From: an uncultured Collinsella sp.
GTDB taxonomy: Bacteria > Actinomycetota > Coriobacteriia > Coriobacteriales > Coriobacteriaceae
Length of the DNA: 64,000 nt
Reading direction: 5' to 3'
Assembly: GCA_958429225.1 (NCBI GenBank)
Contig: CAUAJB010000001.1
Location: 8,955-72,954, forward strand
This document shows positions 15,451 to 45,562 of the stretch, one piece after another. Position numbers and translations under genes: made by a program. The first letter of the stretch is position 1. Each line of letters opens with the position of its first letter. The notes beneath the pieces are model-generated. The model was not told the DNA's origin. It saw nothing but the letters and a program-made list of their open reading frames with translations, and did not search any database.

Positions 15451-15452
15451 CC

Positions 15453-22277: not shown

Positions 22278-22287
22278 TATCCCTCCC

Positions 22288-28699: not shown

Positions 28700-28776
28700 G
28701 GCCCGTTCGTCTAGCGGTTTAGGACGCCGCCCTCTCAAGGCGGAGATCACCAGTTCGAATCTGGTACGGGCTACCA
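28700..28776 (+). tRNA. tRNA-Glu (anticodon CUC), CCA encoded
   Basis: A cloverleaf folds by hand: acceptor GGCCCGT/ACGGGCT, D stem GTCT/GGAC, anticodon stem CCGCC/GGCGG with loop CTCTCAA, and T arm ACCAG-TTCGAAT-CTGGT, followed by the discriminator A and CCA. Confidence 0.9.
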
Positions 28777-28798: not shown

Positions 28799-28875
28799 GG
28801 CCCGTTCGTCTAGCGGTTTAGGACGCCGCCCTCTCAAGGCGGAGATCACCAGTTCGAATCTGGTACGGGCTACCA
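28799..28875 (+). tRNA. tRNA-Glu (anticodon CUC), identical second copy
   Basis: The 77 nt are identical to 28700-28776, separated from it by a 22-nt spacer. Confidence 0.9.
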
Positions 28876-31173: not shown

Positions 31174-32490
31174 TTATCCTTCCCACTCCAAATGGGAATC
31201 CTCCGATGCGTCTTCGCACGCTTGCATGACCTCGATACCATGCGAGCGTGCGAACTCGACGAGCTCTGCGTTGCGGGCGTTTATGGTGCCGAAGGCGGCG
31301 GGGCACACGATAAGGCGCGCGCAGTGGACGAGGAGCTCTTTGGCGCGGGCTATGGTTTTATCCCCGATCGGCTCGAAGGCGCGCTCGGCCACGCATTCCG
31401 TCGCCAGGTCGCGCGCGAGCTCGCAGTCGATGTCCCCTTCGTGCAGAACGCCCGCGTAGAATGCCTTGCCCTGCCGGATGAGCTGGCGAAACACAGCCGA
31501 CCCCGTACCTGCGCCGGCGATGACGAACGTGTGCGCATCGCCGTGCGGGCGCCCAATTTCCACGCTGCCGAAGCGCTCGTTGAAGGTGCCATGTTGAAGG
31601 CCGTAGAGCTTGCCAATCGTCTCGCGCGTGAATATGTCCTCGGGTGCGCCGGCGCGGAAGACCCGGCCGTCCTTCACGCAAATCACCTTGTCGGCGCTTT
31701 TCTGCGCGAGCTCGAGTTCGTGGATGGACATGATGACAGCCACATTCCGCGATTTCGCAAGGTGGCGAAGTATCCGCAGCAGGTCGATCTGGTAGCGGAT
31801 ATCGAGATACGACGTGGGCTCGTCGAGCACGAGCACGCGCGGATCCTGCGCGATGGCGCGTGCGAGCATGACGCGCTGGCGTTGCCCGTCGCTTATCTGC
31901 ATGAAGTCGCGCTCGGCGAGCTCTTCCACACGTGCGGTTTTCATGGCTTCATCGACCCGACTATGGTCGTCGGGCGAGAGTGTGCCCATTCGCCCGGTGT
32001 AGGGATGCCTTCCCGCCTCCACGATATCGCGGCAGGTGAGGAGCTCGGTCCGGGGGCGATCTGTCAGCATAACGGCAAGGTTCCTTGCGAACTCCGCCGT
32101 CTTCCATCGGGAAATCTCTCGCCCGTCGAGCTCGACCGCGCCGGCAAGCGGTGTCAGATGGCGTGTGATGGTTTTCAAGATGGTCGACTTGCCCGAGCCG
32201 TTCGGCCCGATGAGCGCCACGACGTCGCCCGCGCGAACCTTCAGGTCGACGCCTTCGACTACGACCTTCTTGTCGTAGCCCGCCGACAGGTCGCTTATGC
32301 GGAAAAGCGGCGCTCCGTCAGCCTGCGTTTCGACCGGGGTTTCGAGGTTCGGCTCCGCTCGGAGGAGGCGTTCCGCGCGCAGTTCCGCACGAGCCGAAAG
32401 TGCCTTCTGGCGCTTTCGTGCGAGCTCAGGACTGGCCAAGCATGGAATGTTCCCTCCGAGCGTTTTGGTCCGCGGCACGAATTCCCCCAT
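31174..32490 (-). CDS. ABC importer ATP-binding protein (FecE/BtuD-like) with N- and C-terminal extensions
   Basis: Walker A GPNGSGKST, signature SDGQRQR and Walker B LVLDEPT are present. The ATG directly abuts the permease stop (TAGATG). About 140 additional C-terminal residues follow the ABC domain. Confidence 0.85.
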   Translation of the reverse strand: MGEFVPRTKTLGGNIPCLASPELARKRQKALSARAELRAERLLRAEPNLETPVETQADGAPLFRISDLSAGYDKKVVVEGVDLKVRAGDVVALIGPNGSGKSTILKTITRHLTPLAGAVELDGREISRWKTAEFARNLAVMLTDRPRTELLTCRDIVEAGRHPYTGRMGTLSPDDHSRVDEAMKTARVEELAERDFMQISDGQRQRVMLARAIAQDPRVLVLDEPTSYLDIRYQIDLLRILRHLAKSRNVAVIMSIHELELAQKSADKVICVKDGRVFRAGAPEDIFTRETIGKLYGLQHGTFNERFGSVEIGRPHGDAHTFVIAGAGTGSAVFRQLIRQGKAFYAGVLHEGDIDCELARDLATECVAERAFEPIGDKTIARAKELLVHCARLIVCPAAFGTINARNAELVEFARSHGIEVMQACEDASEDSHLEWEG

Positions 32491-33531
32491 CTACCTCACC
32501 CGCTTCTTCAACATGAGTGCAATAACCACCGGCGCGCCGAAGATGGCGGTGACGGCGCTGATGGAAAGCTCGACGGGGGAGAACAGCGTGCGCGCGATCA
32601 AATCGCAGCCCGCGCAGAAGATGGCGCCTCCCAAGAAGCACGCAGGAATCACGCGGATGGGCTTCGACGACTTCAACGCCGACTTCACGAGATGCGGAAC
32701 CGCGATGCCTACGAACGACACCGGACCAGCGAACGCGGTCACGCAGGCAGAGAGCATGCTCGCTAGAAGGACGAGCACCACGCGGAAGCGTGCGACGTTC
32801 ACGCCGACGCTTTTCGCGTAGGCTTCTCCCAGCTGGAAGGCGGAAAGGGGCTTCGATATCGCGAATACGCATGCGCTCACGGTGATCACCACGACCGCGA
32901 TGACCGCGATGTCGTTCCAGCTCGAACCCGAGAAGCTACCCAAAGACCAGTTGTGCAGGTTCACGATGGACTGGTCGTCGGCGAAGGCGATGAGGAAGTT
33001 CGTCGCCGCCGAGCAGATGTATCCCACCATGACGCCCGCCACGATGAGCATGGCCATGGAACTTATGCGCCGTGCGATGAGGAGCACGAAGCCGATGGTG
33101 ATAAGCGAGCCCAGAAACGCTGCGGCCACCATGGCCGGCGAGGACATGGCCTGGTTCGCGTCCAGAAGTGCGATCATCGTAAGCGCGACGACGAACTTTG
33201 CGCCCGAGGAGACGCCCAAGATGAACGGGTCGGCGATGGGGTTGTTGAAAAACGTCTGCAGTAGGAACCCGGAAAGCGAAAGTGCCCCGCCGAGAAGCAC
33301 GGCTGAAAGCACGCGCGGCAGGCGAATCTCCCAGATGACCTGGCTTTCCATGGAATTGGCCGCGCCGCCCGAAAGGATGCCGGGGATGTGGTCTGCTGGC
33401 ACGAGCACGCTCCCGATGCACAGGTTGGCCCCGACGAGCACGATGAGGGCAACAGCGAGCAGCGCCGTCACGACGCGACACCGCGCGGCGCGCCCCGATT
33501 CGTCGTATGTCATGGAAAGTCGGCTTTTCAT
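32491..33531 (-). CDS. FecCD-family ABC permease (BtuC-like)
   Basis: The 346-aa polytopic protein carries LPRVLSAVLLGGALSLSGFLLQ and GPVSFVGIAVPHL, typical of iron-chelate/B12 permeases. Confidence 0.9.
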   Translation of the reverse strand: MKSRLSMTYDESGRAARCRVVTALLAVALIVLVGANLCIGSVLVPADHIPGILSGGAANSMESQVIWEIRLPRVLSAVLLGGALSLSGFLLQTFFNNPIADPFILGVSSGAKFVVALTMIALLDANQAMSSPAMVAAAFLGSLITIGFVLLIARRISSMAMLIVAGVMVGYICSAATNFLIAFADDQSIVNLHNWSLGSFSGSSWNDIAVIAVVVITVSACVFAISKPLSAFQLGEAYAKSVGVNVARFRVVLVLLASMLSACVTAFAGPVSFVGIAVPHLVKSALKSSKPIRVIPACFLGGAIFCAGCDLIARTLFSPVELSISAVTAIFGAPVVIALMLKKRVR

Positions 33532-33535
33532 GGTG

Positions 33536-35107
33536 CTAGCCGAGCTTCCTCAGATAATGGAAGTCGCTCGCGTCATCGCCGGTGAACGCCCCGTGCAGCT
33601 CGTCGATAATGTCGGCGGTAGAAGTCATCTGCTGGTACATGTCGGCGCTTGTGACCCAGACGTTGCCGTTCTTCACGGCTTTGAACTGCGACAATAGCGC
33701 GTTTTTGCCTACGAAGTCGTTCAAGGTGGCAACCGATTCGTCGATGGTGCCGTTGTAGACGATGATGTCGGCATCCTTCGCCGTCGCGTAGAAGCGCTCC
33801 ATTTCGAGCGTTACTGACGAACCTGACGTCGACGCCGTCTGCGCGTCATCGAGCGCGTAGCTGCCGCCTGCAAGCTCGATCATCTGCGCCACGTAGTCGC
33901 CCGCCCGCCTCGTGACGGCGGCCCCGTTCGAGTTAATGTAGAAATACGCCACGGTTTTACCTGACGACGCGAGCCCCGACGTTTGCTCGACGCGGGCCTT
34001 CTGCTCGTTGAACAGGTGCGCGGCCTCGTCTTCCTTGTCGAACAGGACGCCGAAAAGCTTAATCCACTCGACGCGCCCGAGTGCTTCGGGCTCGCTCGAC
34101 GACTGTTCGGTGAGCACGACGAGCCCGAGCTTCTGCAGCTTTTCCTTCACATCGGGCGTGTGGTTGATCATGGTGTTCTCGATGGCGAGCGTGCAGCCCG
34201 AGGCCGATATTCGCTCGTAGTCGGGCGCGCTGTACTTGCCGCCGTAGGCGATCGCCCCACTTTCGAGCGCGCTTTTGAAGCGCGCGACCGAGCAATCGTC
34301 GGCCTTCGTGCCCGACATTAAGATATTGTCGTTCGCATCGAGCGCGTCGACCAGGCACATCGTTGCCGACGACACGAGGTACACCTTGTCGGCGGGGCGC
34401 CTTATGACCGCGATGTCGGAGCTCAACCCATCAGGTACCTTCGCATCTTGCGGCACCACGAGGAAGCGCTCCCCGTTCGAAACGCAGATAAGCCGCAGGC
34501 CGCCTTCGTACTCGTCGACAGTGAAGTGCTTGGCGTATTCAAGCTGAAGCGCCCCCGTCGGCTCCCAGCCGCAGCCCAAATCGGCGTTGTGGAAGTCGGC
34601 CGCGGCGCTTGAAGCCGTTACCGCAGGGGAACCGCCGCTTGCATCGTCGCCCGATTTCTCCTTCATGGTGGATGAGTCGAAGTAGAGCGTGTAGTCGATG
34701 GTGTGCGGCGTCGACATGGCGACGGTCTCGGCCGACACGGCGATGTCCTCGTCGAGCGTGACGGGTATCTCGAATGTGGAGTTGCCGCCGTCGTTTACAG
34801 GCGCGTAGTCCACGCCGTCGACGGTCATTTTGTCGTAGTTCGAACTCAACCAGGTGATGGTCGCGGTGTAGGTGTCGCCATCCTTCACAATTGTGGTGGG
34901 TGAGGCGATGCTTGCGCGCCCTGACCCGCCGGAAAGCGAGACGCTCACAGTGTATTCCTGAGAGCCCGCCGTGCCACCGGTCGCGTTCGGGCTCGCACTG
35001 CACCCCGCGAAGGGAAGCGCGAACAGGGCGACGAGAACGCAGGCGATCGCGCGCACCGCGATGCTGCGACGCTTCCTGCTTTCCCCCTTGGGAAGAATCG
35101 ACCGCAT
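33536..35107 (-). CDS. Lipoprotein substrate-binding protein (BtuF/Peripla_BP_2-like) with an extra N-terminal domain
   Basis: It has a signal peptide with lipobox FAGC, then an extra domain of about 110 aa, then a class-III SBP region (KVYLVSSATMCLVDALDA, TVAYFYINSNG). Confidence 0.8.
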   Translation of the reverse strand: MRSILPKGESRKRRSIAVRAIACVLVALFALPFAGCSASPNATGGTAGSQEYTVSVSLSGGSGRASIASPTTIVKDGDTYTATITWLSSNYDKMTVDGVDYAPVNDGGNSTFEIPVTLDEDIAVSAETVAMSTPHTIDYTLYFDSSTMKEKSGDDASGGSPAVTASSAAADFHNADLGCGWEPTGALQLEYAKHFTVDEYEGGLRLICVSNGERFLVVPQDAKVPDGLSSDIAVIRRPADKVYLVSSATMCLVDALDANDNILMSGTKADDCSVARFKSALESGAIAYGGKYSAPDYERISASGCTLAIENTMINHTPDVKEKLQKLGLVVLTEQSSSEPEALGRVEWIKLFGVLFDKEDEAAHLFNEQKARVEQTSGLASSGKTVAYFYINSNGAAVTRRAGDYVAQMIELAGGSYALDDAQTASTSGSSVTLEMERFYATAKDADIIVYNGTIDESVATLNDFVGKNALLSQFKAVKNGNVWVTSADMYQQMTSTADIIDELHGAFTGDDASDFHYLRKLG

Positions 35108-35111
35108 GGCG

Positions 35112-35645
35112 TTACTTCAGTGCGTCGGCGCGCAGATCGACGCCGGCGGATTTGAACACGAGCGTGCGGTCGTACCACTGCTCTTTTCTAATACTCCACG
35201 CGGCGCAGGCGGTGTCCTCGTCGAGCGCTTCAACGGGTACGTCGTAGGTGTACTTGCCTTCCGCGTTTTCCACATAGGGGATGAAGTCGGCCTCGCTCGC
35301 GGCGGCAGCCTCGTCGCCCGTGCCCATGAAGAGCTTGCCGTAGCCCGTGCCGGAAAGTGTCATCACGCAGTGCATGGAGCCGTTTTCCACGATGAGCTGG
35401 GCGTCCACAATCCTGAACATGTTCGAGCTGGAATCTACGGTGATCGGATAGGTGCCGTCGGCCACCTTGTCGGCGGTGATGGGGGCAGCGCTTGCGCCCT
35501 CGGGCGCATCGGCCGCCTGTTCGGTCTTTTCCTGGGAATCGGCATCGCTTGCCTTTGCGTTGTCGATTGAATTTCCGCCGCAGCCGGCGAGCGAGAACGC
35601 GAAAAGCGCCGCCGACAGGGCGAAGGCGAGGGTTGTCTGCAACAT
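35112..35645 (-). CDS. Lipoprotein of unknown function (domain shared with the N-terminus of the adjacent SBP)
   Basis: Start is ATG 35645 (MLQTTLAFALSAALFAFSLAGCGG, lipobox LAGC). The 177-aa product has a low-complexity linker followed by a domain of about 110 aa. Confidence 0.7.
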   Translation of the reverse strand: MLQTTLAFALSAALFAFSLAGCGGNSIDNAKASDADSQEKTEQAADAPEGASAAPITADKVADGTYPITVDSSSNMFRIVDAQLIVENGSMHCVMTLSGTGYGKLFMGTGDEAAAASEADFIPYVENAEGKYTYDVPVEALDEDTACAAWSIRKEQWYDRTLVFKSAGVDLRADALK

Positions 35646-35789
35646 GGAGGGGTTCCTTTCAATCGCTTCGACCGCCCGCGCCGTGCGGTGGGCGGGCGGG
35701 ATGCGAATGCAACGGGCATGCGCCGTCGGTCGGGGAAGGCGCATGCCCGTTGCACGGGGACGCGACCGGCGCCCCCGTGCGCGGCGAGT

Positions 35790-36716
35790 TTACAGCTTGG
35801 CGATGGCGTCGTCCACGTGCGAGACGTAGATGTCGTCGACCGCGACGTTCTGTCCCAGACCCTGGAGCAGGCACGTCACTTCGAAGCCGGCGGCCACGAA
35901 CTTCGCAGCCCAGCTGTCGGGGTCGGTCTCGTCTGCCATGTCGTTGTTCGCGTGGTCGCCCGCGACCACCATGAACGGCGCGAGCACGGCCTTCTTGTAG
36001 CCTGCGGCGCTCGCGGCGGCGATAACATCCTCGCAGGTCGGTTCAGCCTCGACGGTGCCGACGAAGAACTGCGTCAAGCCCTCGTTCTTAAACACTTCCT
36101 GCATCTTGGCATAGTCGGCGTTGGAATCGGCTTCGGTGCCGTGGCCCATGAGGCACAGCGCCGTCTTGCCGTCGTCGAAGGACGCCATGTTCTCCTTAAT
36201 GGCTGCGGCCACCTTCTTGTAGTCGTCGTCGGAGGTGAGCAGCGGGTCGCCGAGCGAGATCTTATCGAACTTGTCGGCGTACTTGTCGAGCTCGTCTTTC
36301 ACGTCGGTGTATTCCAGGCCGCCCATGAGATGCGTCGGCTGCACGACGATTTCCTTCACGCCGTCTTCCACGCAGCGGTCGAGCGCCTCGGTCATGTTGT
36401 CGATCGTGATACCGTCGCGCTTCTTCAGCTTGTCGATGATGATCTGCGCGGTGAAGGCGCGGCGGATGTCGTAGTCCTGCCAGTACTTCTCGCGGATAGC
36501 GTCTTCGATGGCGCCGATGGTGATGTGGCGCGAGTCGTTGTAGCTCGTGCCGAAGCTCGTGACGAGGATGACCGGCTTCACGGCCTTCTCCTTTTCACTC
36601 GATTTCTCGGAACTCGTGGAGGTGTTGGAGCAGCCCGCGAGCGCGACTCCGGCGAGCGCGACGGCTCCGGTTGCTGCGGCGCCCATGAAGCCGCGGCGTG
36701 ACATCTGGTCGGACAT
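35790..36716 (-). CDS. cbiK: Sirohydrochlorin cobaltochelatase CbiK-like protein with Tat signal and lipobox
   Basis: Start is ATG 36716. The N-terminus has twin-arginine SRRGFMGAAA and lipobox LAGC. CbiK-family motifs SFGTSY, RAFT, MGHG and VAGDHANNDMA are present. Confidence 0.8.
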   Translation of the reverse strand: MSDQMSRRGFMGAAATGAVALAGVALAGCSNTSTSSEKSSEKEKAVKPVILVTSFGTSYNDSRHITIGAIEDAIREKYWQDYDIRRAFTAQIIIDKLKKRDGITIDNMTEALDRCVEDGVKEIVVQPTHLMGGLEYTDVKDELDKYADKFDKISLGDPLLTSDDDYKKVAAAIKENMASFDDGKTALCLMGHGTEADSNADYAKMQEVFKNEGLTQFFVGTVEAEPTCEDVIAAASAAGYKKAVLAPFMVVAGDHANNDMADETDPDSWAAKFVAAGFEVTCLLQGLGQNVAVDDIYVSHVDDAIAKL

Positions 36717-36729
36717 GGTTTTTCCTTTC

Positions 36730-36965
36730 CTCGGTTTGCCGGTCCCCCGGCGACAGTTGCTTGTCGGCACAAGCGAAAGAAAAGCGCACCCCTCGGGGTT
36801 CACAAGGAGCTAACGCCACGGCGATGCCGTGAGGAAAAGGCGAAGCAGTCTGGCTTGGGGCGCGAGGCGGTTCGCCCGCGCGTCCTATACAGTAATGTCC
36901 CTTGCCCAGGATTCCCACCTGGTTCCCTCCGCAAGCCAGCGCGGGCTGTGCGGGCGCCGCGCCGG
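36730..36965 (-). promoter_or_regulatory. Cobalamin riboswitch (leader of the cbiK-like/ABC importer operon)
   Basis: The minus strand reads GGAGGGAACCAGGUGGGAAUCCUGG...ACUGUA. This core is closed by helix GCCCGCGC/GCGCGGGC and followed by a B12-box-like AAGCCAGACUGC. A CCUUUUCCUC segment is complementary to the SD GAGGAAAGG. Confidence 0.7.
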
Positions 36966-37174
36966 TCATTTCCTTTTATCCGATTGTCATATGCTCGTTG
37001 CCGAAACTTTTACTATGATAGTGGGCACTTGTGAACGTGTCAAAGCCAGGGCGGGCGGCATTGCGCCTCCTGCCTGCGTATTTGCGCCGATTGCCGCCGC
37101 AGGCGCCGTGTTTTGTCCGCTGCGCGAATGGCGGCGTAAACGGTTGCGATGAGAAACGGGAAGGGAAGGCTCGG

Positions 37175-37966
37175 ATGATTCATATCGTTGGCGCAGGCTC
37201 GGGCGCCGCCGACCTTATCACGCTGCGCGGGGCGCGCCTTCTGCGCGCGGCCGACGTGGTCGTTTGGGCGGGGAGCCTTGTGAACCCCGAGCTGCTCGCC
37301 GAGTGCAAGGAATCCTGCGTCGTCTACGACAGCGCGCACATGACCTTGGAGGAAGTGCTCGACGTGATGTGCGCGGCGGATGCACGGGGCGAGGAAGTGG
37401 TGCGCCTGCACACGGGCGACCCGTGCCTGTACGGCGCCATCCAGGAGCAGATGGACGCACTCGACGCGCGCGGCGTGGACTACGAGGTGGTGCCCGGCGT
37501 GTCGAGCTTTTGCGGTGCCGCGGCGGCGCTTCGCCAGGAATACACGCTGCCGGGAATCAGCCAGTCGGTCGTGATCACGCGGCTTTCCGGGCGCACCCCC
37601 ATGCCCGCGGGCGAGGGCATGCGCACCATGGCGGAAAGCGGCTCGACTATGGTCATCTTCTTGAGCTCGGGTATGCTCGCCGAGCTTTCCGCCGAGCTTT
37701 TGGCCGCGGGCCGCAGCTCCGACGAGCCGGCGGCGCTCGTGTACAAGGCGACCTGGCCTGAGGAGCGCGTGGTGCGCTGCACAGTGGGCACGCTCGCCGA
37801 TGCGGGTGCGCGAGAGGGCATCGACCGCACGGCGCTCGTGGTGGTGGGCCGCGTGCTCGGAGCTCGCGGTGGGCTTGCGCACGACGGCGCGCAAGCGGAG
37901 TCGTACGAGCGCAGCAAGCTTTACGACCCTTCGTTTGCCACGGGGTATCGGAAGGCGAGCAGCTAG
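37175..37966 (+). CDS. cbiF: Cobalt-precorrin-4 C11-methyltransferase
   Basis: Start is ATG 37175 (MIHIVGAGSGAADLITLRG). It has the TP-methylase fold, with HTGDPCLYGA. Confidence 0.9.
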   Translation: MIHIVGAGSGAADLITLRGARLLRAADVVVWAGSLVNPELLAECKESCVVYDSAHMTLEEVLDVMCAADARGEEVVRLHTGDPCLYGAIQEQMDALDARGVDYEVVPGVSSFCGAAAALRQEYTLPGISQSVVITRLSGRTPMPAGEGMRTMAESGSTMVIFLSSGMLAELSAELLAAGRSSDEPAALVYKATWPEERVVRCTVGTLADAGAREGIDRTALVVVGRVLGARGGLAHDGAQAESYERSKLYDPSFATGYRKASS

Positions 37967-37967
37967 C

Positions 37968-39152
37968 GTGGCCTTCGAGCACTACATATATACCGGGACG
38001 ACCCGCCTGCGCTGCGGCTATACCACGGGGAGCTGCGCCACGCTCGCGGCGAAGGCGGCCTGCGAGATGCTCTTGTCACGAAAGCCCGTCGGCCACGTGT
38101 CGATCGTCACCCCCGGCGGGCTGCCCGTCGAGACGGACGTGGTCGATGCATGCATCGGCGAGGGGTGCGCCCAGTGCGCCGTGCAAAAGGACGCAGGCGA
38201 CGACGCCGATGTGACCGACGGCGTGCTCGTGTACGCGCGCGTGGAACATGCGGGGTCGGGCACGGGCGCTGCGGGCAGCAAGGGCGTGCCCACGCGCGAA
38301 TCGGAAGTTTCCGTCGATGGCGGCGTGGGCGTGGGGCGCGTGACGTTGCCCGGGCTCGAGCAGCCAGTGGGGGCGGCCGCCATCAACGCGACGCCGCGCG
38401 CGATGATCACTTCGGCGGTGCGCGAGGTGTGCGCCGCGCACGGCTTTTCTGGAAATATTGCTGTGACGATTTCGGTACCCGAGGGTGTTGCCCTTGCCGA
38501 AAAGACCTTCAACCCGCACCTGGGGATAGAGGGCGGCATCTCCATCCTGGGCACGACGGGCATCGTCGAGCCGCGCAGCCTCGCTGCCTTGCGCGACAGC
38601 ATCGAGCTCGAGATCCGGCAGCATGCGGCTATGGGGCGGCGCGGAGTCGTGCTCACGCCCGGCAACTACGGCGAGCAGTTCATCTCGGGGCATTTTCACC
38701 TAAACGGAGCGCCGGTGGTCTTCATCTCCAACTTTGTGGGCGATGCGATTGATTGCTGCGTTCGCGAGGGATTTACCAATGTCCTTCTTGTGGGACACAT
38801 CGGCAAGCTGGTGAAGGTCGCTGGCGGCATCATGGACACCCATTCGCGTACCGCCGACTGCCGCGCGGAGATTCTGGCCGCCCACGCGGCCTTGGCCGGC
38901 GCGGGCGCGAAGACCGTGCGCGAGATCATGTCTTCGGTCACGACCACGGCGGCGCTCGAGGTAATCGAGGCCGCCGGCGTGGGGGACGCTGCGCGCGCCT
39001 CGCTCGCTGCGGCAACCGAGGACAGGTTGCGCCGCCGCGCGGCGGGCGCATGCGATATCGCCGCGGTCGTGTTCGACGCCGGGCGCCGCGAGCTTTTCCG
39101 TACGTCGGGCGCCGATGCAGTTATCGGGGAATTGGGGGTGACGTATGAGTAA
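37968..39152 (+). CDS. cbiD: Cobalt-precorrin-5B C1-methyltransferase
   Basis: The GTG start lies 1 nt after the cbiF stop. The CbiD signature GYTTGSCATLAAKAA is present. Confidence 0.9.
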   Translation: MAFEHYIYTGTTRLRCGYTTGSCATLAAKAACEMLLSRKPVGHVSIVTPGGLPVETDVVDACIGEGCAQCAVQKDAGDDADVTDGVLVYARVEHAGSGTGAAGSKGVPTRESEVSVDGGVGVGRVTLPGLEQPVGAAAINATPRAMITSAVREVCAAHGFSGNIAVTISVPEGVALAEKTFNPHLGIEGGISILGTTGIVEPRSLAALRDSIELEIRQHAAMGRRGVVLTPGNYGEQFISGHFHLNGAPVVFISNFVGDAIDCCVREGFTNVLLVGHIGKLVKVAGGIMDTHSRTADCRAEILAAHAALAGAGAKTVREIMSSVTTTAALEVIEAAGVGDAARASLAAATEDRLRRRAAGACDIAAVVFDAGRRELFRTSGADAVIGELGVTYE

Positions 39153-39834
39153 AGGCGTGCTGTACGGGGTGGGAACGGGGCCTGGCGACCCCGAGCTGCT
39201 CACGATCAAGGCCGTCCGCACAATCGAATCGTGTCCGGTCATCGCCGCGCCGCAGACGGCGGACGGGGCCATGGTCGCGCTCGATATCGTGCGCGGCGCC
39301 GTCGACCTTACAGGCAAGACGGTGATCCCCGTGCGGTTCTCGATGACGCGCGACGCCGAGCGCCGCGCGGCCGAGCATGCCTCGCTTGTTCGCGAGCTTG
39401 TCGCGCACCTGGATGCGGCCCGCGACGTCGCGCTGCTGAACCTGGGGGACCCGAGCATCTACGCCACCTTCCAGCGCATAGCGCCCGACGTGCGCGCCCG
39501 CGGGTTCGAGGCGCGTGCCATTCCCGGCGTGCCGAGCTTCTGCGCGGTCGCCGCGGCGCTCGAGCGCGACCTCACGCCCGAGATGTCGTCGCCTCTGCAT
39601 ATCGTGCCCGGCGGCTACGACGACGTGCGCCGCGCAATCGGCTGGCCGGGGACGAAGGTGATCATGAAGGCGCGCCGTTCGCTTGCGGACACGAAGCGCA
39701 TCCTTCGCGAGGAGGGCGCCTTCGACGGTGCCGAGCTCGTAGAGGACTGTGGGCTTCCGGGCGAGCGCGTGTACCGCTCGCTCGACGATGTGCCCGATCG
39801 GGGCAGCTACTTCTCGACGATGGTGGTGCGCTAG
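39145..39834 (+). CDS. cbiL: Cobalt-precorrin-2 C20-methyltransferase
   Basis: N-terminus is LYGVGTGPGDPELLTIKAV. It overlaps cbiD by 8 nt. Confidence 0.9.
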   Translation: MSKGVLYGVGTGPGDPELLTIKAVRTIESCPVIAAPQTADGAMVALDIVRGAVDLTGKTVIPVRFSMTRDAERRAAEHASLVRELVAHLDAARDVALLNLGDPSIYATFQRIAPDVRARGFEARAIPGVPSFCAVAAALERDLTPEMSSPLHIVPGGYDDVRRAIGWPGTKVIMKARRSLADTKRILREEGAFDGAELVEDCGLPGERVYRSLDDVPDRGSYFSTMVVR

Positions 39835-40968
39835 ATGAGGGTTTCCTGCATAGCGTTCACTGAGAGGGGGTATGCGTTGGCGGAGCGCACCGCACGCGCG
39901 CTTTCCGATTGCGCGCAGACAGGTGAAGATGATCCTGGCTGGGACGTTTCCGTTTCACGCGGGTTCGGCGAGGGGAAGGCCGACTTGCGCGCATGGACGG
40001 CGCTCGCGTGGGAAGCGTCGGACGCGCTTCTGTTCGTGGGCGCGGCGGGCATCGCCGTGCGGGCGATCGCGCCGCATGTCGCCTCGAAGGCAACCGATTC
40101 CGCGGTTGTGGCGATCGACGAGGCGGGGCGCTTTGCCGTCCCGCTTTTGTCGGGGCATTTGGGCGGCGCGAACGAGCTTGCGCAAACTGTGGCACGCGCG
40201 GCAGGGGCCATCCCCGTCATCACCACGGCGACCGACGTCCGCGGCGTGTGGGCGGTGGATACGTGGGCGCGCCGTGCGGGTCTCGCCGTTTCGAATCCCG
40301 AAGCCATCAAGCGAGTGTCGGCGCGGCTGCTTTCGGGCGGGCGCGTGGCGCTCTATTCCGACATGCCGATTTCGGGACAGCCGCCTAAGGGGGTTGACAT
40401 TGCGTCAAACCGCGCTCGGGCCGATATCGTCGTGTCGCCGTTCGCTGGCGCGAATGCAGGTGCGTCCGTTCGCGCGGCGGAGACAACGGGCGAGGTCGTG
40501 CCCGCCGGTGAGACGGGGAAGCCGGCGGGCGTGCGGGCGCAGGCGCCTGCGCCCGAGCCGCTTTGCCTTGTCGTGCCCTGCATCGTTGCGGGCATAGGGT
40601 GCCGTCGCGGTGCGTGCGCCGAAGCGATTGGGGAGGCGTTTCTTCTCGCGTGCGGGCAGGCGGGCATCTCGCCTTCGGCCGTGCGCGAGGCGGCGACGAT
40701 CGACGTGAAGGCGCACGAGGAGGGTCTGCTCGCCTTCTGCCGCGCGCGCAATATCCCGCTTGCGACGTATTCCGCAGAGGAGTTGTCGCAGGTCGAAGGC
40801 AGCGTTTCGCCATCTGATTTCGTGCGCGCGACGGTGGGGGTCGACAACGTGTGCGAGCGCGCGGCGCTCGCGGACGGGGGCAAACTTATCTTCCCAAAGC
40901 TCGCTCACGGCGGCGTGACCGTCGCGTTTTCCAAGGTAACTATCGAACTTTCGTTTAAGGAGCGGTGA
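39835..40968 (+). CDS. cbiG: Cobalt-precorrin-5A hydrolase
   Basis: CbiG N-, middle and C-terminal regions are recognisable (VAGIGCRRG ... IDVKAHEEGL). Confidence 0.85.
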   Translation: MRVSCIAFTERGYALAERTARALSDCAQTGEDDPGWDVSVSRGFGEGKADLRAWTALAWEASDALLFVGAAGIAVRAIAPHVASKATDSAVVAIDEAGRFAVPLLSGHLGGANELAQTVARAAGAIPVITTATDVRGVWAVDTWARRAGLAVSNPEAIKRVSARLLSGGRVALYSDMPISGQPPKGVDIASNRARADIVVSPFAGANAGASVRAAETTGEVVPAGETGKPAGVRAQAPAPEPLCLVVPCIVAGIGCRRGACAEAIGEAFLLACGQAGISPSAVREAATIDVKAHEEGLLAFCRARNIPLATYSAEELSQVEGSVSPSDFVRATVGVDNVCERAALADGGKLIFPKLAHGGVTVAFSKVTIELSFKER

Positions 40969-41711
40969 TGGGAAAGCTCTTCGTGGTGGGGATCGGCCCG
41001 GGCGGCCCCGACGGCATGACGATTGCGGCTCGGCGCGCGCTCGAGGCGGCCGACACCGTTGTGGGGTACACGAAATACGTGGAGCTCGCGCTCGCCGCCG
41101 TGCCCGACGTGGCGCATCTCGCGACGCCGATGATGCACGAGGTCGAACGGTGCCGCCTGGCGCTTTCGCGTGCGCAGAGCGGAGAAGCCGTGGCGCTCGT
41201 GTGCAGCGGTGACGCGGGCGTGTACGGCATGGCGAGCCCCGTGCTGGAGCTTGCGGAGGACTACCCCGATGTAGACGTGGAAGTTATCGCCGGGGCCACC
41301 GCGGCTCAAAGCGGGTCGGCGGTGCTCGGCGCCCCGCTTGCCCACGACTTCGCGGTCGTGTCGCTCTCCGACTTGCTCACGCCGTGGGAGGTCATCGAGC
41401 GCAGGCTCGCCGCCGTGGCGATCGCCGACTTCTGCATCTGTTTGTACAACCCGCGCAGCAGAAAGCGCGCCGACAGGCTCTCGCGCGCGGCGAAGATTAT
41501 GCTCGAATGGAAGGCCCCCGACACGCTCTGCGGTTGGGTACGCAACATCGGGCGCGAGGGGCAGCAGTCGGGCATGTGCAGGCTCTCCGAGCTGGGGGAG
41601 CTCGATGCAGACATGTTCACCACCGTGTTCGTCGGCAACGCGGGCACGAAGCGCGTAGGCGGCCGTATGGTCACGCCGCGCGGGTATCGGGAGATTCCAT
41701 GCGAAAGGTAA
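40968..41711 (+). CDS. cbiH: Cobalt-precorrin-3B C17-methyltransferase
   Basis: ATG 40968 lies 5 nt after RBS AAGGAG (a GTG at 40965 is also possible). N-terminus is VVGIGPGGPDGMTIAARRALEAADTVVGYTKY. Confidence 0.9.
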   Translation: MGKLFVVGIGPGGPDGMTIAARRALEAADTVVGYTKYVELALAAVPDVAHLATPMMHEVERCRLALSRAQSGEAVALVCSGDAGVYGMASPVLELAEDYPDVDVEVIAGATAAQSGSAVLGAPLAHDFAVVSLSDLLTPWEVIERRLAAVAIADFCICLYNPRSRKRADRLSRAAKIMLEWKAPDTLCGWVRNIGREGQQSGMCRLSELGELDADMFTTVFVGNAGTKRVGGRMVTPRGYREIPCER

Positions 41712-43048
41712 CGATTATCGGGGCGGGGCCCGGAAACGCCGACTTGCTCTCGCGCGCGGCGCTCGACGCGATCGACATCGCCGACGTGGTCATCGGCGCT
41801 CATCGCGCGCTTGTTGGCATCGACGTGCCGCCCGACGTGGTGAGATGCGAGCTCGTGAAGACGGCGGACATCGTCGCCGCGCTCACCGATGCGGCGTCGT
41901 GGCAGCGCGCCGTGGTCGTGATGACGGGCGATGTGGGGCTGTTCAGCGGCGCGCGCCGCCTGGCGGAGGCAATCTCCGGCGACGCGCAGGTGGACGTGCG
42001 CATCATTCCCGGCATAAGCTCAGCGTCGTATCTCGCCGCGTGCCTCGCGCGTCCATGGCAGGATTGGCGCTTCGCGAGCGCTCACGGCGTGGCGTGCGAC
42101 ATCGTGGCCGAGGCCGAGCGCGCAGGTGAGCTCTTCCTCGTCACGTCGGGCGGGGAAGACCCCTCGCGGCTTTCGGGCGAGCTTGTGCAGGCGGGCTTCG
42201 GGGACGCGCGCGTGACGGTGGCCGAGCGCCTGTCGTACCCCGACGAGCGTATCACCTGCGCGACCGCAAGTGAAATCGCAGGTCAGACGTTCGACGACTT
42301 GAACGTGATGCTTATCGATTTCGCAGGTGGCGCCGGGTCGCCTGCGGGCTCTAGCGCAGCCTCCGAGGCGCCGGCCGGCGCGTCTGCATCCGCGGCGGCT
42401 TCTTCCGCGGCGGACCCTGCGGGCGCATCCCGCGCCGCGAGCTCCCGCTGGCCGTACGCTTCCTCGGGCATTCCCGACGAGCTCTTCATCCGCGGCGAAG
42501 TTCCCATGACCAAGCAGGAGGTGCGCGCCGTCGCGCTCGCGAAGCTGCGCCTTACCGCGACCGACACCGTGTGGGACGTCGGCGCCGGCACGGGGAGCGT
42601 GTCGATCGAGGCGGCGCTCGTCGCGCGAGCGGGCTCGGTATGGGCGGTGGAGCGCAACGCGGCCGGCGTGCGGCTCATCCGAGAGAACGCGGATGCATTC
42701 GGGTGCGGCAACGTGCATGCGGTCCCCGGTGTCGCCCCCGATGCGCTCGCGAAACTGCCCGTCCCCGACGCCGTGTTCGTCGGCGGGAGTGCGTGCGAGC
42801 TTCCCTCCATCGTGGAGGCGGCGCTCGAGAAGAACTCGCAGGTTCGCCTGTGCGTGCCATGCGTCACCGTTGAGACGCTCACCGAGGCGTGCGCGCTCCT
42901 CTCGGGTTCGCGCTTTAAGGGGTTCGAGGCGTGCCAGGTGTCGGCCGCCCGCGCCGAGGCTGTAGGCTCGCACCATCTTATGAAGGCGCAAAACCCCGTG
43001 TTCCTCGTCAGCGCGCGTGGTGCAGGTGGGGAAGGCGGCGCCCGGTGA
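41699..43048 (+). CDS. cbiET: Fused cobalt-precorrin-7 C5-methyltransferase / cobalt-precorrin-6B C15-methyltransferase (decarboxylating)
   Basis: The CbiE part (IIGAGPGNADLLSRAAL) and the CbiT SAM-methyltransferase part (VWDVGAGTGSVSIEAA) are joined by an Ala/Ser/Gly linker. Confidence 0.85.
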   Translation: MRKVTIIGAGPGNADLLSRAALDAIDIADVVIGAHRALVGIDVPPDVVRCELVKTADIVAALTDAASWQRAVVVMTGDVGLFSGARRLAEAISGDAQVDVRIIPGISSASYLAACLARPWQDWRFASAHGVACDIVAEAERAGELFLVTSGGEDPSRLSGELVQAGFGDARVTVAERLSYPDERITCATASEIAGQTFDDLNVMLIDFAGGAGSPAGSSAASEAPAGASASAAASSAADPAGASRAASSRWPYASSGIPDELFIRGEVPMTKQEVRAVALAKLRLTATDTVWDVGAGTGSVSIEAALVARAGSVWAVERNAAGVRLIRENADAFGCGNVHAVPGVAPDALAKLPVPDAVFVGGSACELPSIVEAALEKNSQVRLCVPCVTVETLTEACALLSGSRFKGFEACQVSAARAEAVGSHHLMKAQNPVFLVSARGAGGEGGAR

Positions 43049-44427
43049 GCACGTCCATTCCGCGCTTCATGGTCGCTGCGCCCTCGAGCGGGAGCGGCAA
43101 GACGGTCGTAACGTGCGCGCTCCTGCGCGCGCTCGCGCGCCGCGGCCTTGCATGCGCGGCCTTCAAATGCGGCCCCGACTACATTGACCCGCTCTTTCAT
43201 CGCCGCGTCGTGGGTACGCGCTCGGGCAACTTAGACGGCTTCTTCACCGACGCTCCGACGCTGCGCGCCCTGCTCGCACGCGGCGCCGCGGGCGCGGATG
43301 TCGCGGTGCTCGAGGGGGTCATGGGCTTCTACGACGGCATGGCGCCCGGCGTGGCCGACGCGAGCAGCTACCAGGTTGCGCGCGACACGGAAACGCCGGT
43401 CGTTTTAGTGGTGAACGGGCGCGGGGCGTCTTTATCGCTCGCCGCCGTAATCCGCGGCATCGCCGAGTTCCTGCCTTGTGCGAACGTGCGCGGCGTCGTG
43501 CTGAACAAGACGGGCGCCGCTGCCTGCGCCTACGCGGCGCCTGCGATCGAGAAGCACACGGGCGTCGCGGTTTTGGGTAATATCCCCGCCGACGAGGCGT
43601 TCTCGCTCGAAAGCCGGCATCTGGGGCTTGTGACCGCCGACGAGGTCAAGCAGCTCTCCGCGCGCATCGGCAAGATGGCCGAGCTGGTGGAAAAGAGCGT
43701 CGACGTCGATCGCTTGCTCGAAATAGCGGCGACGGCACCCGATATCCGCGAGGAACCTTACCGGTTGGAGCCGATCGCGGGAGCGCGGCCCATCGTCGCC
43801 GTCGCGCGTGACGAGGCGTTCTCGTTCTACTACGAGGAGAACCTGCGCGCGCTCGAGGACCTGGGTTGCGAGCTGGCCTTTTTCAGCCCCCTGTGTGATA
43901 GCGAGTTGCCCCGGGGGACAAGCGCCCTCTATCTGGGAGGCGGCTACCCGGAGCTCCATGCGCGGCAGCTCTCCGAGAACGCGCCGATGCGCGAGGCGGT
44001 GCGGCGCGCGGTGGAATCCGGCATGCCGACGGTCGCCGAATGCGGTGGGTTTCTGTACCTGCAGCGCGAAATCGCCGATAGCGAGGGGCGGCGCTGGCCT
44101 GTTGCGGGCGCCCTTGAGGGAGCAAGCGAGAACGGGGGAAGGCTGTCCCATTTCGGGTACGTGGAGCTCACTTCCCAACGCGACGGGCTCTACGGGCCGC
44201 GCGGCACACGCATCCGCGCGCACGAGTTCCACTACTGGCAGTCCACCTGCCCGGGCGGCGACTTCTGGGCGCAGAAGCCCCGGCGCGACAAGGGCTGGCC
44301 GTGCATGACGACCACCCCGTCCCTGGTTGCGGGCTTCCCGCATGTGTACTATCCTGCGAACCCCGACGTTGCGCGCGCGTTCGCGTCTGCCACAGCGTCG
44401 TTCGCAGAGAGGAGACGGCATGGCTGA
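43045..44427 (+). CDS. cbiA: Cobyrinate a,c-diamide synthase
   Basis: The GTG start overlaps the cbiET stop. SGSGKTVVTCALL and FKCGPDYIDP are present, with a GATase-like C-terminal half. Confidence 0.9.
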   Translation: MSTSIPRFMVAAPSSGSGKTVVTCALLRALARRGLACAAFKCGPDYIDPLFHRRVVGTRSGNLDGFFTDAPTLRALLARGAAGADVAVLEGVMGFYDGMAPGVADASSYQVARDTETPVVLVVNGRGASLSLAAVIRGIAEFLPCANVRGVVLNKTGAAACAYAAPAIEKHTGVAVLGNIPADEAFSLESRHLGLVTADEVKQLSARIGKMAELVEKSVDVDRLLEIAATAPDIREEPYRLEPIAGARPIVAVARDEAFSFYYEENLRALEDLGCELAFFSPLCDSELPRGTSALYLGGGYPELHARQLSENAPMREAVRRAVESGMPTVAECGGFLYLQREIADSEGRRWPVAGALEGASENGGRLSHFGYVELTSQRDGLYGPRGTRIRAHEFHYWQSTCPGGDFWAQKPRRDKGWPCMTTTPSLVAGFPHVYYPANPDVARAFASATASFAERRRHG

Positions 44428-45562
44428 AGCAACCGAAACCGCGCTTGCCTGCATCCGTGAGGAAGTCGAGCGCGCGTTCTCGTCGGCGCCGGGTGCCGTG
44501 CTCGAAGCCGCGCTCTCCCGGATCGCGCCCGCAGACGAGTGCGCCCGCGCCGCCGCGTACGCCGCGTGGGACTCTATCGCGCACCCCTTGGGGGGATTGG
44601 GCGACTTTGAAGACGCCGTCGCGTGTATCGCCGCAGCTCAGGGGAGCGCCGAGGTGGCCGAGTTTCCCCGTGCACTCGCGGTATTCTTCTCCGACAACGG
44701 GGTCGTTGCCGAAGGCGTGTCGCAAAGCGGGCAAGACGTGACGCGAGCCGTCGCGCGCAACATGTGCGAGGGGGCCACGAGCGCCTGCCGCATGGCGGCG
44801 TTCGCGGGTGCCGAGGTCGTGCCCGTCGACGTGGGTATGGCCCGGGGCATAGAAGACACGCGCATGGTGCGCGCGAACGTGCGGCGGGGGAGCGGCAACA
44901 TCGCGCACGGCTCCGCTATGTCTCGCGATGGGGCCGTTCGCGCGATCGAGGTCGGAATTGCCGTCGCGTGCGGACTTGCCCGCGCCGGCGTGCGCCTTTT
45001 CGCCGCGGGCGAGATGGGCATCGGCAACACGACCACCTCGGCGGCGGTGGCCGCAGTGCTCATCCGGGCGGACGCGCGGAGCCTCGTCGGGCGCGGCGCG
45101 GGGCTCTCGGACGCCTCGCTCGCGCGCAAGCGCGACGTGGTCGAGCGCGCTATCGACGCGAACTCGCCCGATCCCGCCGACCCGATCGACGTGCTCTCGA
45201 AGGTCGGCGGCTTCGACATCGCGGCGATGTGCGGCTTCTACCTGGGGGCCGCGGCCTCGAAGGCGCCGGCGCTCCTCGACGGGGTCATATCATGCACGGC
45301 GGCCCTGTGCGCGGCGCGCCTGTGCCCTAACGCCTTGGGCTACCTCGTGGGCACCCACGTATCAAGCGAACCGGCAAGCCAGGAGCTCCTTCGCGAGCTC
45401 GGCATAAAGGCACCCCTCGACGCAGGCATGCACTTGGGCGAGGGCGCGGGCGCCATGGCGTATCTGCCCCTTCTGGATTCGGCGCTGCGCGTGTACCGGG
45501 ATGGGAAGACGTTCACGGCGACTGGCATGGCTGCTTACGAGCATTTCGAGGCCGGGAAATGA
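44420..45562 (+). CDS. cobT: Nicotinate-nucleotide--dimethylbenzimidazole phosphoribosyltransferase
   Basis: Motifs GEMGIGNTTTSAAV and LGEGAGA are present. Confidence 0.9.
   Translation: MAEATETALACIREEVERAFSSAPGAVLEAALSRIAPADECARAAAYAAWDSIAHPLGGLGDFEDAVACIAAAQGSAEVAEFPRALAVFFSDNGVVAEGVSQSGQDVTRAVARNMCEGATSACRMAAFAGAEVVPVDVGMARGIEDTRMVRANVRRGSGNIAHGSAMSRDGAVRAIEVGIAVACGLARAGVRLFAAGEMGIGNTTTSAAVAAVLIRADARSLVGRGAGLSDASLARKRDVVERAIDANSPDPADPIDVLSKVGGFDIAAMCGFYLGAAASKAPALLDGVISCTAALCAARLCPNALGYLVGTHVSSEPASQELLRELGIKAPLDAGMHLGEGAGAMAYLPLLDSALRVYRDGKTFTATGMAAYEHFEAGK

Follow-up and report, generated by a model that had tools for sequence, protein, structure and literature searches.

In the 64-kb stretch of DNA analysed here (the window), which derives from a gut bacterium of the Collinsella aerofaciens group, five minus-strand genes form an operon that is predicted to be repressed by B12; its products are predicted to capture a tetrapyrrole on the outside of this Gram-positive cell and to import it. 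We consider this reading, with a corrinoid or cobalt tetrapyrrole as predicted ligand, moderately probable.

A fixed gene cassette

The first gene (35,790–36,716, minus strand, like all features described below) encodes a CbiK-like protein of 308 amino acids (Pfam CbiK, 8e-79). It is followed by genes for a 177-aa lipoprotein with a NEAT-like domain A (35,112–35,645; lipobox LAGC), a 523-aa lipoprotein of the cluster-A (Peripla_BP_2) type of substrate-binding proteins (SBP; 33,536–35,107; lipobox FAGC), a FecCD/BtuC-type permease (32,491–33,531; Pfam FecCD, 8e-81) and a 438-aa ABC ATPase (31,174–32,490), whose ABC domain (residues 79–227) is accompanied by additional N- and C-terminal regions. 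From cbiK to the ATPase gene the spacings are 144, 4, 4 and 0 nt. Re-examination of the open reading frames thus gave the same genes, order, signal peptides and spacings as an initial annotation of this DNA. By sequence, every accessory protein is exported or lipid-anchored.

The 144-nt intercistronic spacer (35,646–35,789) contains three strong GC-rich hairpins without a U-tract (−87.3 kcal/mol; z = −5.2), which bears out its earlier description as structured. A second Collinsella species (L090) shows compensatory changes that preserve the hairpins, and a different hairpin occupies the equivalent spacer position in L084. They may serve mRNA stabilisation or differential expression.

The combination had been regarded as unusual in a monoderm. 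It is not confined to the source organism; it is a fixed cassette that is widespread in Coriobacteriia and Firmicutes: gene order was identical in 92 of 92 diverse loci, and all 80 metagenome loci showed the order CbiK, domain A, domain B, SBP, permease, ATPase within each contig's reach. Our literature search found no description of this gene set. In twelve loci with longer flanks the cassette usually lies inside or beside cbi clusters; such a position is seen in the window and in L081, L084, L086, L087, L088, L089, L090 and L091.

The leader RNA and predicted B12 control

A promoter-like site (TTGACA-17 nt-TATCAT; 37,015–37,043) is located about 30 nt upstream of a predicted aptamer. It matches the consensus at 11 of 12 positions and is the sole such site between 35,600 and 37,200, where 0.3 are expected from shuffled sequences. 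The aptamer itself (approximately 36,835–36,977) comprises P1, a P2 hairpin, P3, P4 with a GGUGnnAAUCC loop, P5 with the loop GGGACA and a short P6 without the P7–P11 extension, followed by a remnant of the B12 box, AAGCCAGACUGC. A small linker hairpin (CACGGC-AUC-GCCGUG, helix 7; 36,817–36,831) fills the interval between aptamer and P13; 88% of its cells are paired and 2 pairs are changed on both sides. The P13 hairpin (36,776–36,810), a terminator-like site, carries the invariant loop UGAACCC, the CCC of which is complementary to the GGG of L5 and would form a kissing loop. Since GCGCUUUUCUUU follows directly, P13 is probably both an intrinsic terminator and the expression platform. The coordinates given initially thus do not cover the whole regulatory region, with the aptamer at about 36,835–36,977 and the promoter-like site at 37,015–37,043.

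At the Rfam gathering score (31.5 bits) RF00174 does not detect the leader, and a local scan yields 16 bits (E 0.1). With the same model, two orthologous leaders from Coriobacteriia reach 25.6 and 30.5 bits. A covariance model (R1) was built from five other Coriobacteriia leaders, leaving out the window sequence. Its single match in the 64-kb window is the leader, at 127.1 bits (E 2.5e-29), and it also recovers bona fide RF00174 sites (L131, 43 bits; L088, 31 bits; L089; L109). Across the six leaders 56 columns are invariant. In the covariation analysis 92.3% of cells are paired and 10 pairs are changed on both sides; none of 500 shuffles reached the observed value. Helices P3, P4 and P13 covary, the P13 stem through variants such as CCUUG/CGAGG, CUCCG/CGGAG and CGCUG/CGGCG, and both kissing loops are invariant. 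The leader shares the core J3/4-P4-L4 motif and P5 with RF00174 and with class II/AdoCbl-variant aptamers lacking the P6 extension, as well as the CUG/CAG start of P6, the B12-box remnant and the L5–L13 kissing loop leading into the expression platform; it differs from RF00174 in its short P6, its shortened B12 box and its low score. Thus the B12 riboswitch of the initial annotation stands as a compact (reduced) variant with predicted ligand binding, an identity that rests on strong comparative evidence because the score falls below the Rfam threshold.

The low RF00174 score, the missing P6 extension and a short P1 (about 6 bp in the window), with helix 1 being the worst paired (62%), would also fit a decayed, non-functional remnant upstream of a constitutive or protein-regulated operon. 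We regard this as highly improbable: the reduced architecture is retained in at least six divergent Coriobacteriia leaders, P3, P4 and P13 show compensatory changes, the kissing-loop partners do not vary, a U-tract terminator follows P13, and within Collinsella the leader is near-invariant with variation mostly in the P6 hairpin.

For the functional riboswitch we propose the following scheme. High intracellular cobalamin would be bound by the compact aptamer, and P1 together with the L5–L13 kissing loop would hold P13, with its U-tract, so that transcription stops upstream of cbiK. At low cobalamin the 3′ strand of P1 (CCUUUUCCUC) would be released and could base-pair with that of P13, resulting in read-through. 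Canonical RF00174 elements precede the cassette at the equivalent position in 19 of 20 metagenome loci (55–113.5 bits), the 20th having the compact form, and RF00174 also scores at or above threshold upstream of cbiK in L087, L088 and L089. Together with the compact riboswitch found here, this supports the earlier proposal that the operon is under B12 control and belongs to the B12 regulon.

Exported domains and the importer

The N-terminus of the CbiK-like protein, MSDQMSRRGFMGAAATGAVALAGVALAGC, confirms the Tat signal and lipobox noted earlier (NCBIfam TAT_signal, 16.9 bits at a cutoff of 16.7). A lipobox is present in 51 of 56 homologous CbiK ORFs. Among the five exceptions, two ORFs are truncated where their contig stops, two begin with a long N-terminal extension, and one carries a Tat signal but no lipobox. 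The closest solved structures are Salmonella enterica CbiK (4e-44), Porphyromonas gingivalis FetB (9b86; 1.7e-37) and Desulfovibrio vulgaris CbiKP (2xvx; 1e-32). The catalytic residues H192, E223 and H255 are kept in 57 of 57 cassette CbiKs. By sequence the product is a membrane-tethered class II chelatase of the CbiK type with an intact active site.

The initial annotation had seen a common domain in the two lipoproteins, and indeed they match each other in pairwise BLASTP (E 1e-4) and in profile–profile comparison (hhalign probability 97.9%, E 3.3e-13). Domain A covers residues ~55–170 of the 177-aa protein, which matched no Pfam family; domain B is the extra beta-rich N-terminal domain of the SBP (residues ~48–150; 34,658–34,966). 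The domain had been left unassigned. In the AlphaFold2 model of domain A (pLDDT ≥96 over blocks 61–160), however, 29 of the 30 top Foldseek matches in the PDB are heme-binding NEAT domains or the NEAT-like Shp, including IsdX1 (E 1.5e-4), Hbp2-N2, IsdA, IsdH-N3 and Shp. Domain A reaches just 13.2 bits with Pfam NEAT, and a free-standing domain B orthologue in L084 reaches 27.9 bits (E 3.4e-6). The domain A family comprises 1361 clusters at 50% identity. Elsewhere A and B are fused to each other in Firmicutes, and A–B–SBP fusions occur in P0218 and P0289. A and B are thus, according to sequence profiles and structure models, paralogues with a very divergent NEAT (heme-carrier) fold.

The SBP was initially described as BtuF-like. 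Its extra N-terminal domain is confirmed and BtuF is among its fold matches, but in sequence it is nearer to the SBP that the Listeria NEAT locus encodes, Lmo2184, its closest solved relative (2.8e-8), and to IsdE, the best, weak match in NCBIfam, where no BtuF model matched. The Peripla_BP_2 match is restricted to residues 245–488 (Pfam, 5.4e-32). In the structure model (pLDDT 84) CeuE, heme SBPs and BtuF fit about equally well, and siderophore, heme and B12 binders are indistinguishable by this fold search. The best NCBIfam model of the permease is BtuC (PRK03784; 209 bits, below the cutoff of 334), and that of the ATPase is the haloarchaeal 'corrinoid ABC transporter ATPase' NF007082 (residues 61–401). 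These family matches support an importer of the BtuCD/FecCD type, in agreement with the earlier class assignment. The extra parts of the ATPase were likewise recognised before. The N-terminal extension (~60 aa) is genus-specific, common only to L090; the C-terminal MJ0874-type domain (~120 aa) is catalogued as PF27219 and also occurs in the haloarchaeal corrinoid BtuD. Alone it matches positions 272–351 of NF007082 (E 9e-9), and PF27219 is recorded at every looked-up locus with a full-length ATPase.

Several of these matches could point to uptake of heme, or of iron from heme, as in the Isd or IhtB–FetB systems: NEAT domains and an IsdE-like SBP would carry heme, the exported CbiK would bind or de-metalate it, and B12 control would reflect cross-talk of tetrapyrrole pools. 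The fold matches of domain A and the relatives of the SBP fit this view, and D. vulgaris CbiKP binds heme. Nevertheless, the FHG position of CbiKP (2xvx), which we take to hold the heme-ligating histidine, aligns with YTD in the window CbiK, the nearest family of the ATPase is of corrinoid type, and the cassette contains no heme oxygenase, IsdG-like or sortase genes. The near-universal cobalamin-riboswitch control and the embedding in cbi operons would be unexpected for an iron or heme system. Heme uptake is therefore the weaker rival and in our judgement quite improbable, even with P. gingivalis IhtB/FetB described as heme-binding (PMC12094164).

Candidate ligands and a proposed surface relay

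Both the regulation of the operon and the genes around it suggest a cobalt tetrapyrrole as ligand, either a corrinoid or an early intermediate. Against a corrinoid stand the missing BtuF match of the SBP and the heme-binding precedents of NEAT domains; to our knowledge all characterised NEAT domains bind heme and none is known for corrinoids, and a literature search for a link between NEAT and cobalamin found no paper. Moreover, pure corrinoid salvage assigns no role to the fully conserved catalytic triad of CbiK.

That triad would be explained if the cassette acquires cobalt for de novo B12 synthesis, a serious rival that we nevertheless rate as rather unlikely. Surface CbiK would load scarce Co(II) on an extracellular tetrapyrrole carrier for NEAT relay and import, or, more simply, the importer would carry Co(II) itself; the cassette would replace the usual pair of cbiK and cbiMNQO in cbi operons. 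Indeed, it heads or sits within cbi operons in L087, L089 and L081, and the window holds a 16-gene cbi cluster and neither a second chelatase nor a cobalt transporter. NEAT domains hold metalloporphyrins by an axial ligand to the metal, and IsdA with cobalt-protoporphyrin (3qzp) is among the fold matches. In Sinorhizobium meliloti the BtuFCD-like, cobalamin-riboswitch-controlled CbtJKL carries Co(II) and not B12 (PMC7689651), and the CbiK homologue FetB on the surface of P. gingivalis is an active extracellular chelatase with Mn-protoporphyrin IX as product (PMC13065792). On the other hand, a source or exporter of the carrier tetrapyrrole was not seen, only 64 kb are visible so that the rest of the genome may encode a cytoplasmic chelatase and a cobalt transporter, the Paratissierella cassette (L082) is located away from cbi genes, and two tetrapyrrole-carrier domains would be needless for import of free Co(II).

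Parts of the cassette resemble known systems. As in the Isd/Hbp relays (IsdA/B/C/H to IsdE to IsdF; Listeria Hbp1/2-Lmo2184), several extracytoplasmic NEAT-fold carriers are combined with a cluster-A lipoprotein SBP, a FecCD permease and an ATPase, and some members of the domain family repeat the domain up to 10 times, as multi-NEAT proteins do. In contrast to Isd/Hbp, the domains lie below or just at the Pfam NEAT threshold, a lipobox or SBP fusion takes the place of sortase anchoring, a heme-degrading enzyme is lacking, an exported CbiK is always there, and the cassette is found under cobalamin riboswitches and in cbi clusters. P. gingivalis IhtB/FetB (IhtACDE) likewise couples a CbiK-fold surface lipoprotein to an ABC importer, but it belongs to the outer membrane, includes a TonB-dependent receptor and is linked to heme and iron; neither riboswitch control nor a cbi context is known to us for it. 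In D. vulgaris the gene for an exported CbiK paralogue shares a transcript with those for a BtuFCD-type importer, cbiK and btuCDF being under the control of a B12 element (PMC545781). There, however, the cell is a diderm, CbiKP is soluble in the periplasm and NEAT-type domains are lacking; the window CbiK is nearer to the biosynthetic S. enterica enzyme. With BtuFCD, haloarchaeal BtuCDF and CbtJKL the cassette shares its best permease and ATPase models, including the C-terminal ATPase domain, and, for BtuFCD and CbtJKL, riboswitch control; its scores, however, lie below all equivalog cutoffs, and it adds chelatase and NEAT modules. The proposed role also matches that of Bacteroides BtuG, BtuH and BtuJ, B12-riboswitch-linked accessory lipoproteins which pass a cobamide to the transporter; these work in an outer-membrane setting and have unrelated folds (beta-propeller, DUF4465, others). 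What BtuH/BtuJ homologues do in Gram-positive Firmicutes is 'entirely uncharacterized' according to a 2026 review (PMC13616437).

For the corrinoid or cobalt-tetrapyrrole reading, the Isd heme relay and the A–B, B–SBP and A–B–SBP fusions suggest an order in which NEAT-A would hand the ligand over to NEAT-B, after which it would enter the SBP cleft and finally reach the permease. CbiK would act as first receptor or as an enzyme inserting or exchanging metal, and the C-terminal domain of the ATPase may sense the imported molecule (trans-inhibition). Given the tetrapyrrole-carrier fold of the accessory domains, the exported parts and the membership in the B12 regulon, the operon is best read as a surface system that captures the ligand and relays it to the importer, as proposed in outline before.

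Gene content of the cassette and the exported CbiK

The cassette comprises five genes on the minus strand. The first (35790–36716) encodes a 308-aa protein with a full-length CbiK domain (Pfam 8e-79), whose N-terminus MSDQMSRRGFMGAAATGAVALAGVALAGC scores above the NCBIfam cutoff for Tat signals and has a lipobox at its end. It is followed by genes for a 177-aa lipoprotein with a lipobox and no Pfam family (35112–35645, carrying domain A), a 523-aa lipoprotein of the substrate-binding protein (SBP) type (33536–35107), a FecCD permease (32491–33531) and a 438-aa ABC ATPase (31174–32490). Peripla_BP_2 covers only residues 245–488 of the SBP, and residues 48–150 form a separate beta-rich domain (domain B). 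The five genes are spaced by 144, 4, 4 and 0 nt. Thus the tight packing with one structured spacer, the Tat signal and lipobox of the CbiK-like protein, and the additional N-terminal domain of the SBP, all proposed in the initial annotation, were confirmed.

The 144-nt spacer between cbiK and the lipoprotein gene (35646–35789, minus strand) contains three strong GC hairpins without a U-tract (−87 kcal/mol, z −5.2). These hairpins are preserved by compensatory changes in the homologous locus L090, and at this site locus L084 forms another hairpin. Probably they serve to stabilise the mRNA or to balance expression. That the spacer contains a second riboswitch was rejected because it matches neither Rfam nor R1, a covariance model built from five other Coriobacteriia leaders with the window left out, and because sequence conservation ends at Collinsella.

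The nearest solved relative of the CbiK-like protein is the biosynthetic enzyme of S. enterica (4e-44), followed by FetB of P. gingivalis and CbiKP of D. vulgaris; the NCBIfam equivalog for CbiK was not reached (225 bits, cutoff 400). Judged from the alignment to 1qgo, the chelatase active site of the exported protein is preserved, with the catalytic residues H192, E223 and H255 kept in 57 of 57 cassette CbiKs. Unlike the cytoplasmic biosynthetic enzyme, the cassette family carries a Tat or Sec lipoprotein signal throughout. Among the 54 open reading frames with an intact 5′ end, 51 encode a lipobox; one more has only the Tat signal. A cytoplasmic form initiated at an internal start was rejected, as the loci share no conserved Met, Val or Leu codon ahead of the catalytic domain. 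Three proteins of the cassette are extracytoplasmic.

The riboswitch leader

At gathering score, Rfam detected in the entire window only two tRNAs and no cobalamin riboswitch. The two tRNA-Glu(CUC) genes are identical and arranged in tandem on the plus strand, 22 nt apart (28700–28776 and 28799–28875). A local scan of 701 nt placed the cobalamin riboswitch model RF00174 at 36860–36970 with 16 bits (E 0.1) versus a gathering score of 31.5, the P6 extension being deleted. The initial annotation had placed a B12 riboswitch upstream of the cassette and had named a leader that does not score as one among the grounds for refuting its reading. By Rfam alone it does not, but this sub-threshold verdict was overturned by comparative evidence.

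Orthologous leaders preceding the same cassette score 25.6 and 30.5 bits with RF00174 in other Coriobacteriia and 58–106 bits in Firmicutes. Among 20 surveyed metagenome loci whose upstream flanks are complete, RF00174 was found on the coding strand before cbiK in 19 (55–113.5 bits), the 20th having the compact form. Sequence diversity of leaders and cassettes was obtained from single-protein look-ups and a metagenome scan; 80 near-identical Collinsella loci from a genome scan, which assign the organism to the Collinsella aerofaciens group, were of little use for covariation. An alignment of six Coriobacteriia leaders has 56 invariant columns, including GGGAAyCnGGUGnrAAUCCnGrGCAAGGGmCAUUrCUGU and AAGCCAG, and the conserved core of cobalamin riboswitches (GGGAA-P4-GGUGnnAAUCC, P5, ACUG...CAG, B12 box) is invariant. 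Compensatory changes occur in helix P3 (CGGAG/CUUCG, CAAGG/CCUUG, CUGGG/CCCGG, CAGAG/CUCUG), in P4 and in the downstream hairpin P13. Altogether 92% of cells are paired and 10 pairs are altered on both sides, a value reached in none of 500 shuffles. The loop of P13, UGAACCC, is also invariant, and the CCC within it is a complement of the equally invariant GGG in loop L5; a comparable kissing loop exists in cobalamin riboswitches. R1, which also recovers accepted RF00174 sites, gave a single match in the window at 36782–36971 (127 bits, E 2.5e-29), and no further copies of the aptamer core were found there. The leader is preceded by a promoter-like site, TTGACA-17-TATCAT (37043–37015, minus strand), and P13 (36810–36788, minus strand) is followed by GCGCUUUUCUUU, which resembles a terminator.

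From these comparisons of sequence we conclude that the leader is a genuine, reduced cobalamin riboswitch lacking the P6 extension, which would act on transcription termination; its ligand preference and exact switching scheme we infer. The cassette belongs to the B12 regulon.

This compact variant of the riboswitch occurs across the Coriobacteriia and does not reach the Rfam gathering score, the measured values being 25.6 and 30.5 bits. Compact forms were located in L084 (6618–6751), L086 (6726–6871), L090 (~4060–4200), L091 (~4185–4320), L092 (~3785–3900) and L102 (1974–2159). Since these riboswitches fall below the Rfam threshold, B12 regulons of Coriobacteriia are probably under-called by standard annotation.

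NEAT-like domains and the importer

Pfam and NCBIfam yielded nothing usable for domain A, and a PDB sequence search with a domain-A profile returned signal peptides only. An assignment as PplA-like was rejected, the weak PplA match being confined to signal peptide and linker. The structural model of domain A (pLDDT 96–98 over blocks 61–160) was compared with the PDB by Foldseek, and 29 of the 30 top matches were NEAT or NEAT-like heme-binding domains with target-normalised TM-scores of at most 0.65, including IsdX1, Hbp2-N2, IsdA, IsdH-N3 and Shp. According to this model domain A adopts the NEAT beta-sandwich fold. Domains A and B are paralogous (hhalign 97.9%, E 3.3e-13), and through this link domain B is predicted to have the NEAT fold as well. 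The gathering score of the Pfam NEAT family PF05031 (32.8 bits) was not reached in the window (13.2 bits for domain A, no match for domain B); among relatives, the free domain B of L084 scored 27.9 bits and the homologous protein P0265 34.6 bits. Thus the two lipoproteins do share a domain, as initially annotated, but it can be assigned to a divergent NEAT fold.

Heme binding by NEAT domains involves the YxxxY / 3-10-helix motif; in domain A the motifs SSSxMF and WYDR are invariant. The SBP-fused copies of domain B have invariant M131, H135 and Y139, whereas two fused A–B proteins have Tyr or Gln in place of the histidine. The domain-A family comprises 1361 representative clusters at 50% identity, including proteins with up to 10 repeats. 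Three giant proteins, P0241 (1473 aa), P0242 (1965 aa) and P0263 (2538 aa), contain 5–10 domain-A repeats and resemble multi-NEAT hemophores.

The SBP has a generic cluster-A fold, and the fold search does not discriminate between binders of siderophores, heme and B12. The closest sequence of known structure is that of Lmo2184, encoded in the NEAT locus of Listeria. No BtuF model was present among the NCBIfam matches of the SBP, the best being IsdE (9e-5) followed by SstD, and a profile comparison with BtuF of V. cholerae gave only E 0.5. The initial annotation had given this protein a BtuF-like fold; in sequence it is nearer to Lmo2184 than to BtuF. For the permease BtuC was the top model (209 bits, cutoff 334) and for the ATPase a haloarchaeal corrinoid ATPase (252 bits, cutoff 537). 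The extra terminal regions that had been noted in the ATPase are both present: the N-terminal extension is common only to another Collinsella, and the C-terminal domain corresponds to PF27219 (MJ0874) in precomputed annotation. This C-terminal domain on its own matches the haloarchaeal corrinoid ATPase model (E 9e-9); a PDB sequence search with it found nothing.

Distribution, candidate ligands and significance

Distant-homologue look-ups and the metagenome scan provided 92 diverse loci, in which, as far as each contig extends, a single order is kept: CbiK, A, B, SBP, permease and ATPase with C-terminal domain. The cassette occurs in many gut Coriobacteriia and Firmicutes, almost always with a cobalamin riboswitch upstream. 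Domain B stands alone in L084, is joined to the end of domain A in Firmicutes and precedes the SBP in the Collinsella fusion; in P0218 and P0289 A, B and SBP form one protein. These fusions tie A and B, which have tetrapyrrole-carrier folds, to each other and to the SBP.

Variants of the cassette were also observed. In L091 (Collinsella tanakaei, 4503–7575) cbiK, domain A and the B–SBP fusion are not followed by permease and ATPase genes, and the importer genes may lie elsewhere or have been lost. In L092 (4047–9500) a 191-aa open reading frame with neither a Pfam family nor a domain-A tblastn match precedes a longer CbiK of 392 aa; the ATPase (264 aa) lacks the MJ0874-type C-terminal domain, and a tetrapyrrole methylase gene comes next.

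The cassette adjoins cbi genes in the window, L084, L086, L090 and L091, heads a cbi operon in L087 and L089, and follows cbiJ in L081 and hemC, hemD, hemB and hemL in L088. In Paratissierella (L082) it lies apart from cbi genes and retains a weak riboswitch. In L081 (Paratractidigestivibacter, 12512–16531) the cassette is located between the cbi operon and genes for a PocR-type sensor kinase, an AraC-type regulator and a microcompartment with diol dehydratase (pdu), placing B12 consumers immediately beside it. In the window a 16-gene anaerobic cbi/cob cluster is oriented divergently (37172–53464, plus strand); it has no riboswitch of its own, and only ~128 nt separate the cassette promoter from cbiF. 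Elsewhere in the window, long overlapping open reading frames occupy both strands at 20094–22289 (731 aa on the minus strand, without Pfam family; 693 aa on the plus strand).

From regulation and gene context we infer that the ligand is a cobalt tetrapyrrole, which would be handed over in an Isd-like manner from A to B, to the SBP and to the permease. Heme as ligand agrees with the NEAT folds, but it disagrees with the regulation and the gene context. Isd-type heme uptake involves sortase anchoring, a heme-degrading enzyme and iron-responsive control. The cassette is controlled by a cobalamin riboswitch, and neither sortase nor IsdG-like genes were found within it or in the flanking regions.

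Acquisition of cobalt is a serious alternative, because the riboswitch-controlled, BtuFCD-like CbtJKL system imports Co(II) (PMC7689651), because neither a second chelatase nor a cobalt transporter is present in the window, and because FetB, a surface CbiK homologue of P. gingivalis, metalates porphyrins (PMC13065792). No cytoplasmic cobaltochelatase, uroporphyrinogen methyltransferase or cobalt transporter was seen in the cbi/cob cluster or the rest of the 64 kb. On a more far-reaching reading, which we regard as rather unlikely, this NEAT branch of 1361 clusters would carry cobalt tetrapyrroles and not heme, with cobalt inserted by the surface CbiK. The exported CbiK would then possibly be the sole cobaltochelatase for the adjacent cbi pathway, and the tetrapyrrole metalated at the surface would be relayed via NEAT-A, NEAT-B and the SBP into B12 synthesis. 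There is a substantial chance that the cassette brings to light a function of NEAT-fold domains other than with heme.

Precedents exist for every part of the cassette: the NEAT relay, BtuFCD and CbtJKL, exported CbiK in P. gingivalis and in Desulfovibrio, where it accompanies a cobalamin importer (PMC545781), and cobalamin riboswitches without P6 extension. What appears to be new is the combination, which is widespread in Gram-positive bacteria, fixed in order and controlled by B12; literature searches retrieved no description of the cassette or of this combination of parts.

Gut bacteria compete for B12 and cobalt, and this competition shapes their communities. To our knowledge, the mechanism of extracellular B12 or cobalt capture has been worked out in Bacteroidota only, and the role of the exported CbiK paralogue of Desulfovibrio is still unsettled. 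For the BtuH/BtuJ homologues of Gram-positive Firmicutes, a 2026 review describes the role as “entirely uncharacterized” (PMC13616437). With its chelatase and NEAT-fold carriers, the cassette offers concrete Gram-positive candidates for such capture. Should a corrinoid or some other cobalt tetrapyrrole prove to be the ligand, NEAT chemistry would no longer be confined to heme, and a function could be assigned to exported CbiK paralogues.
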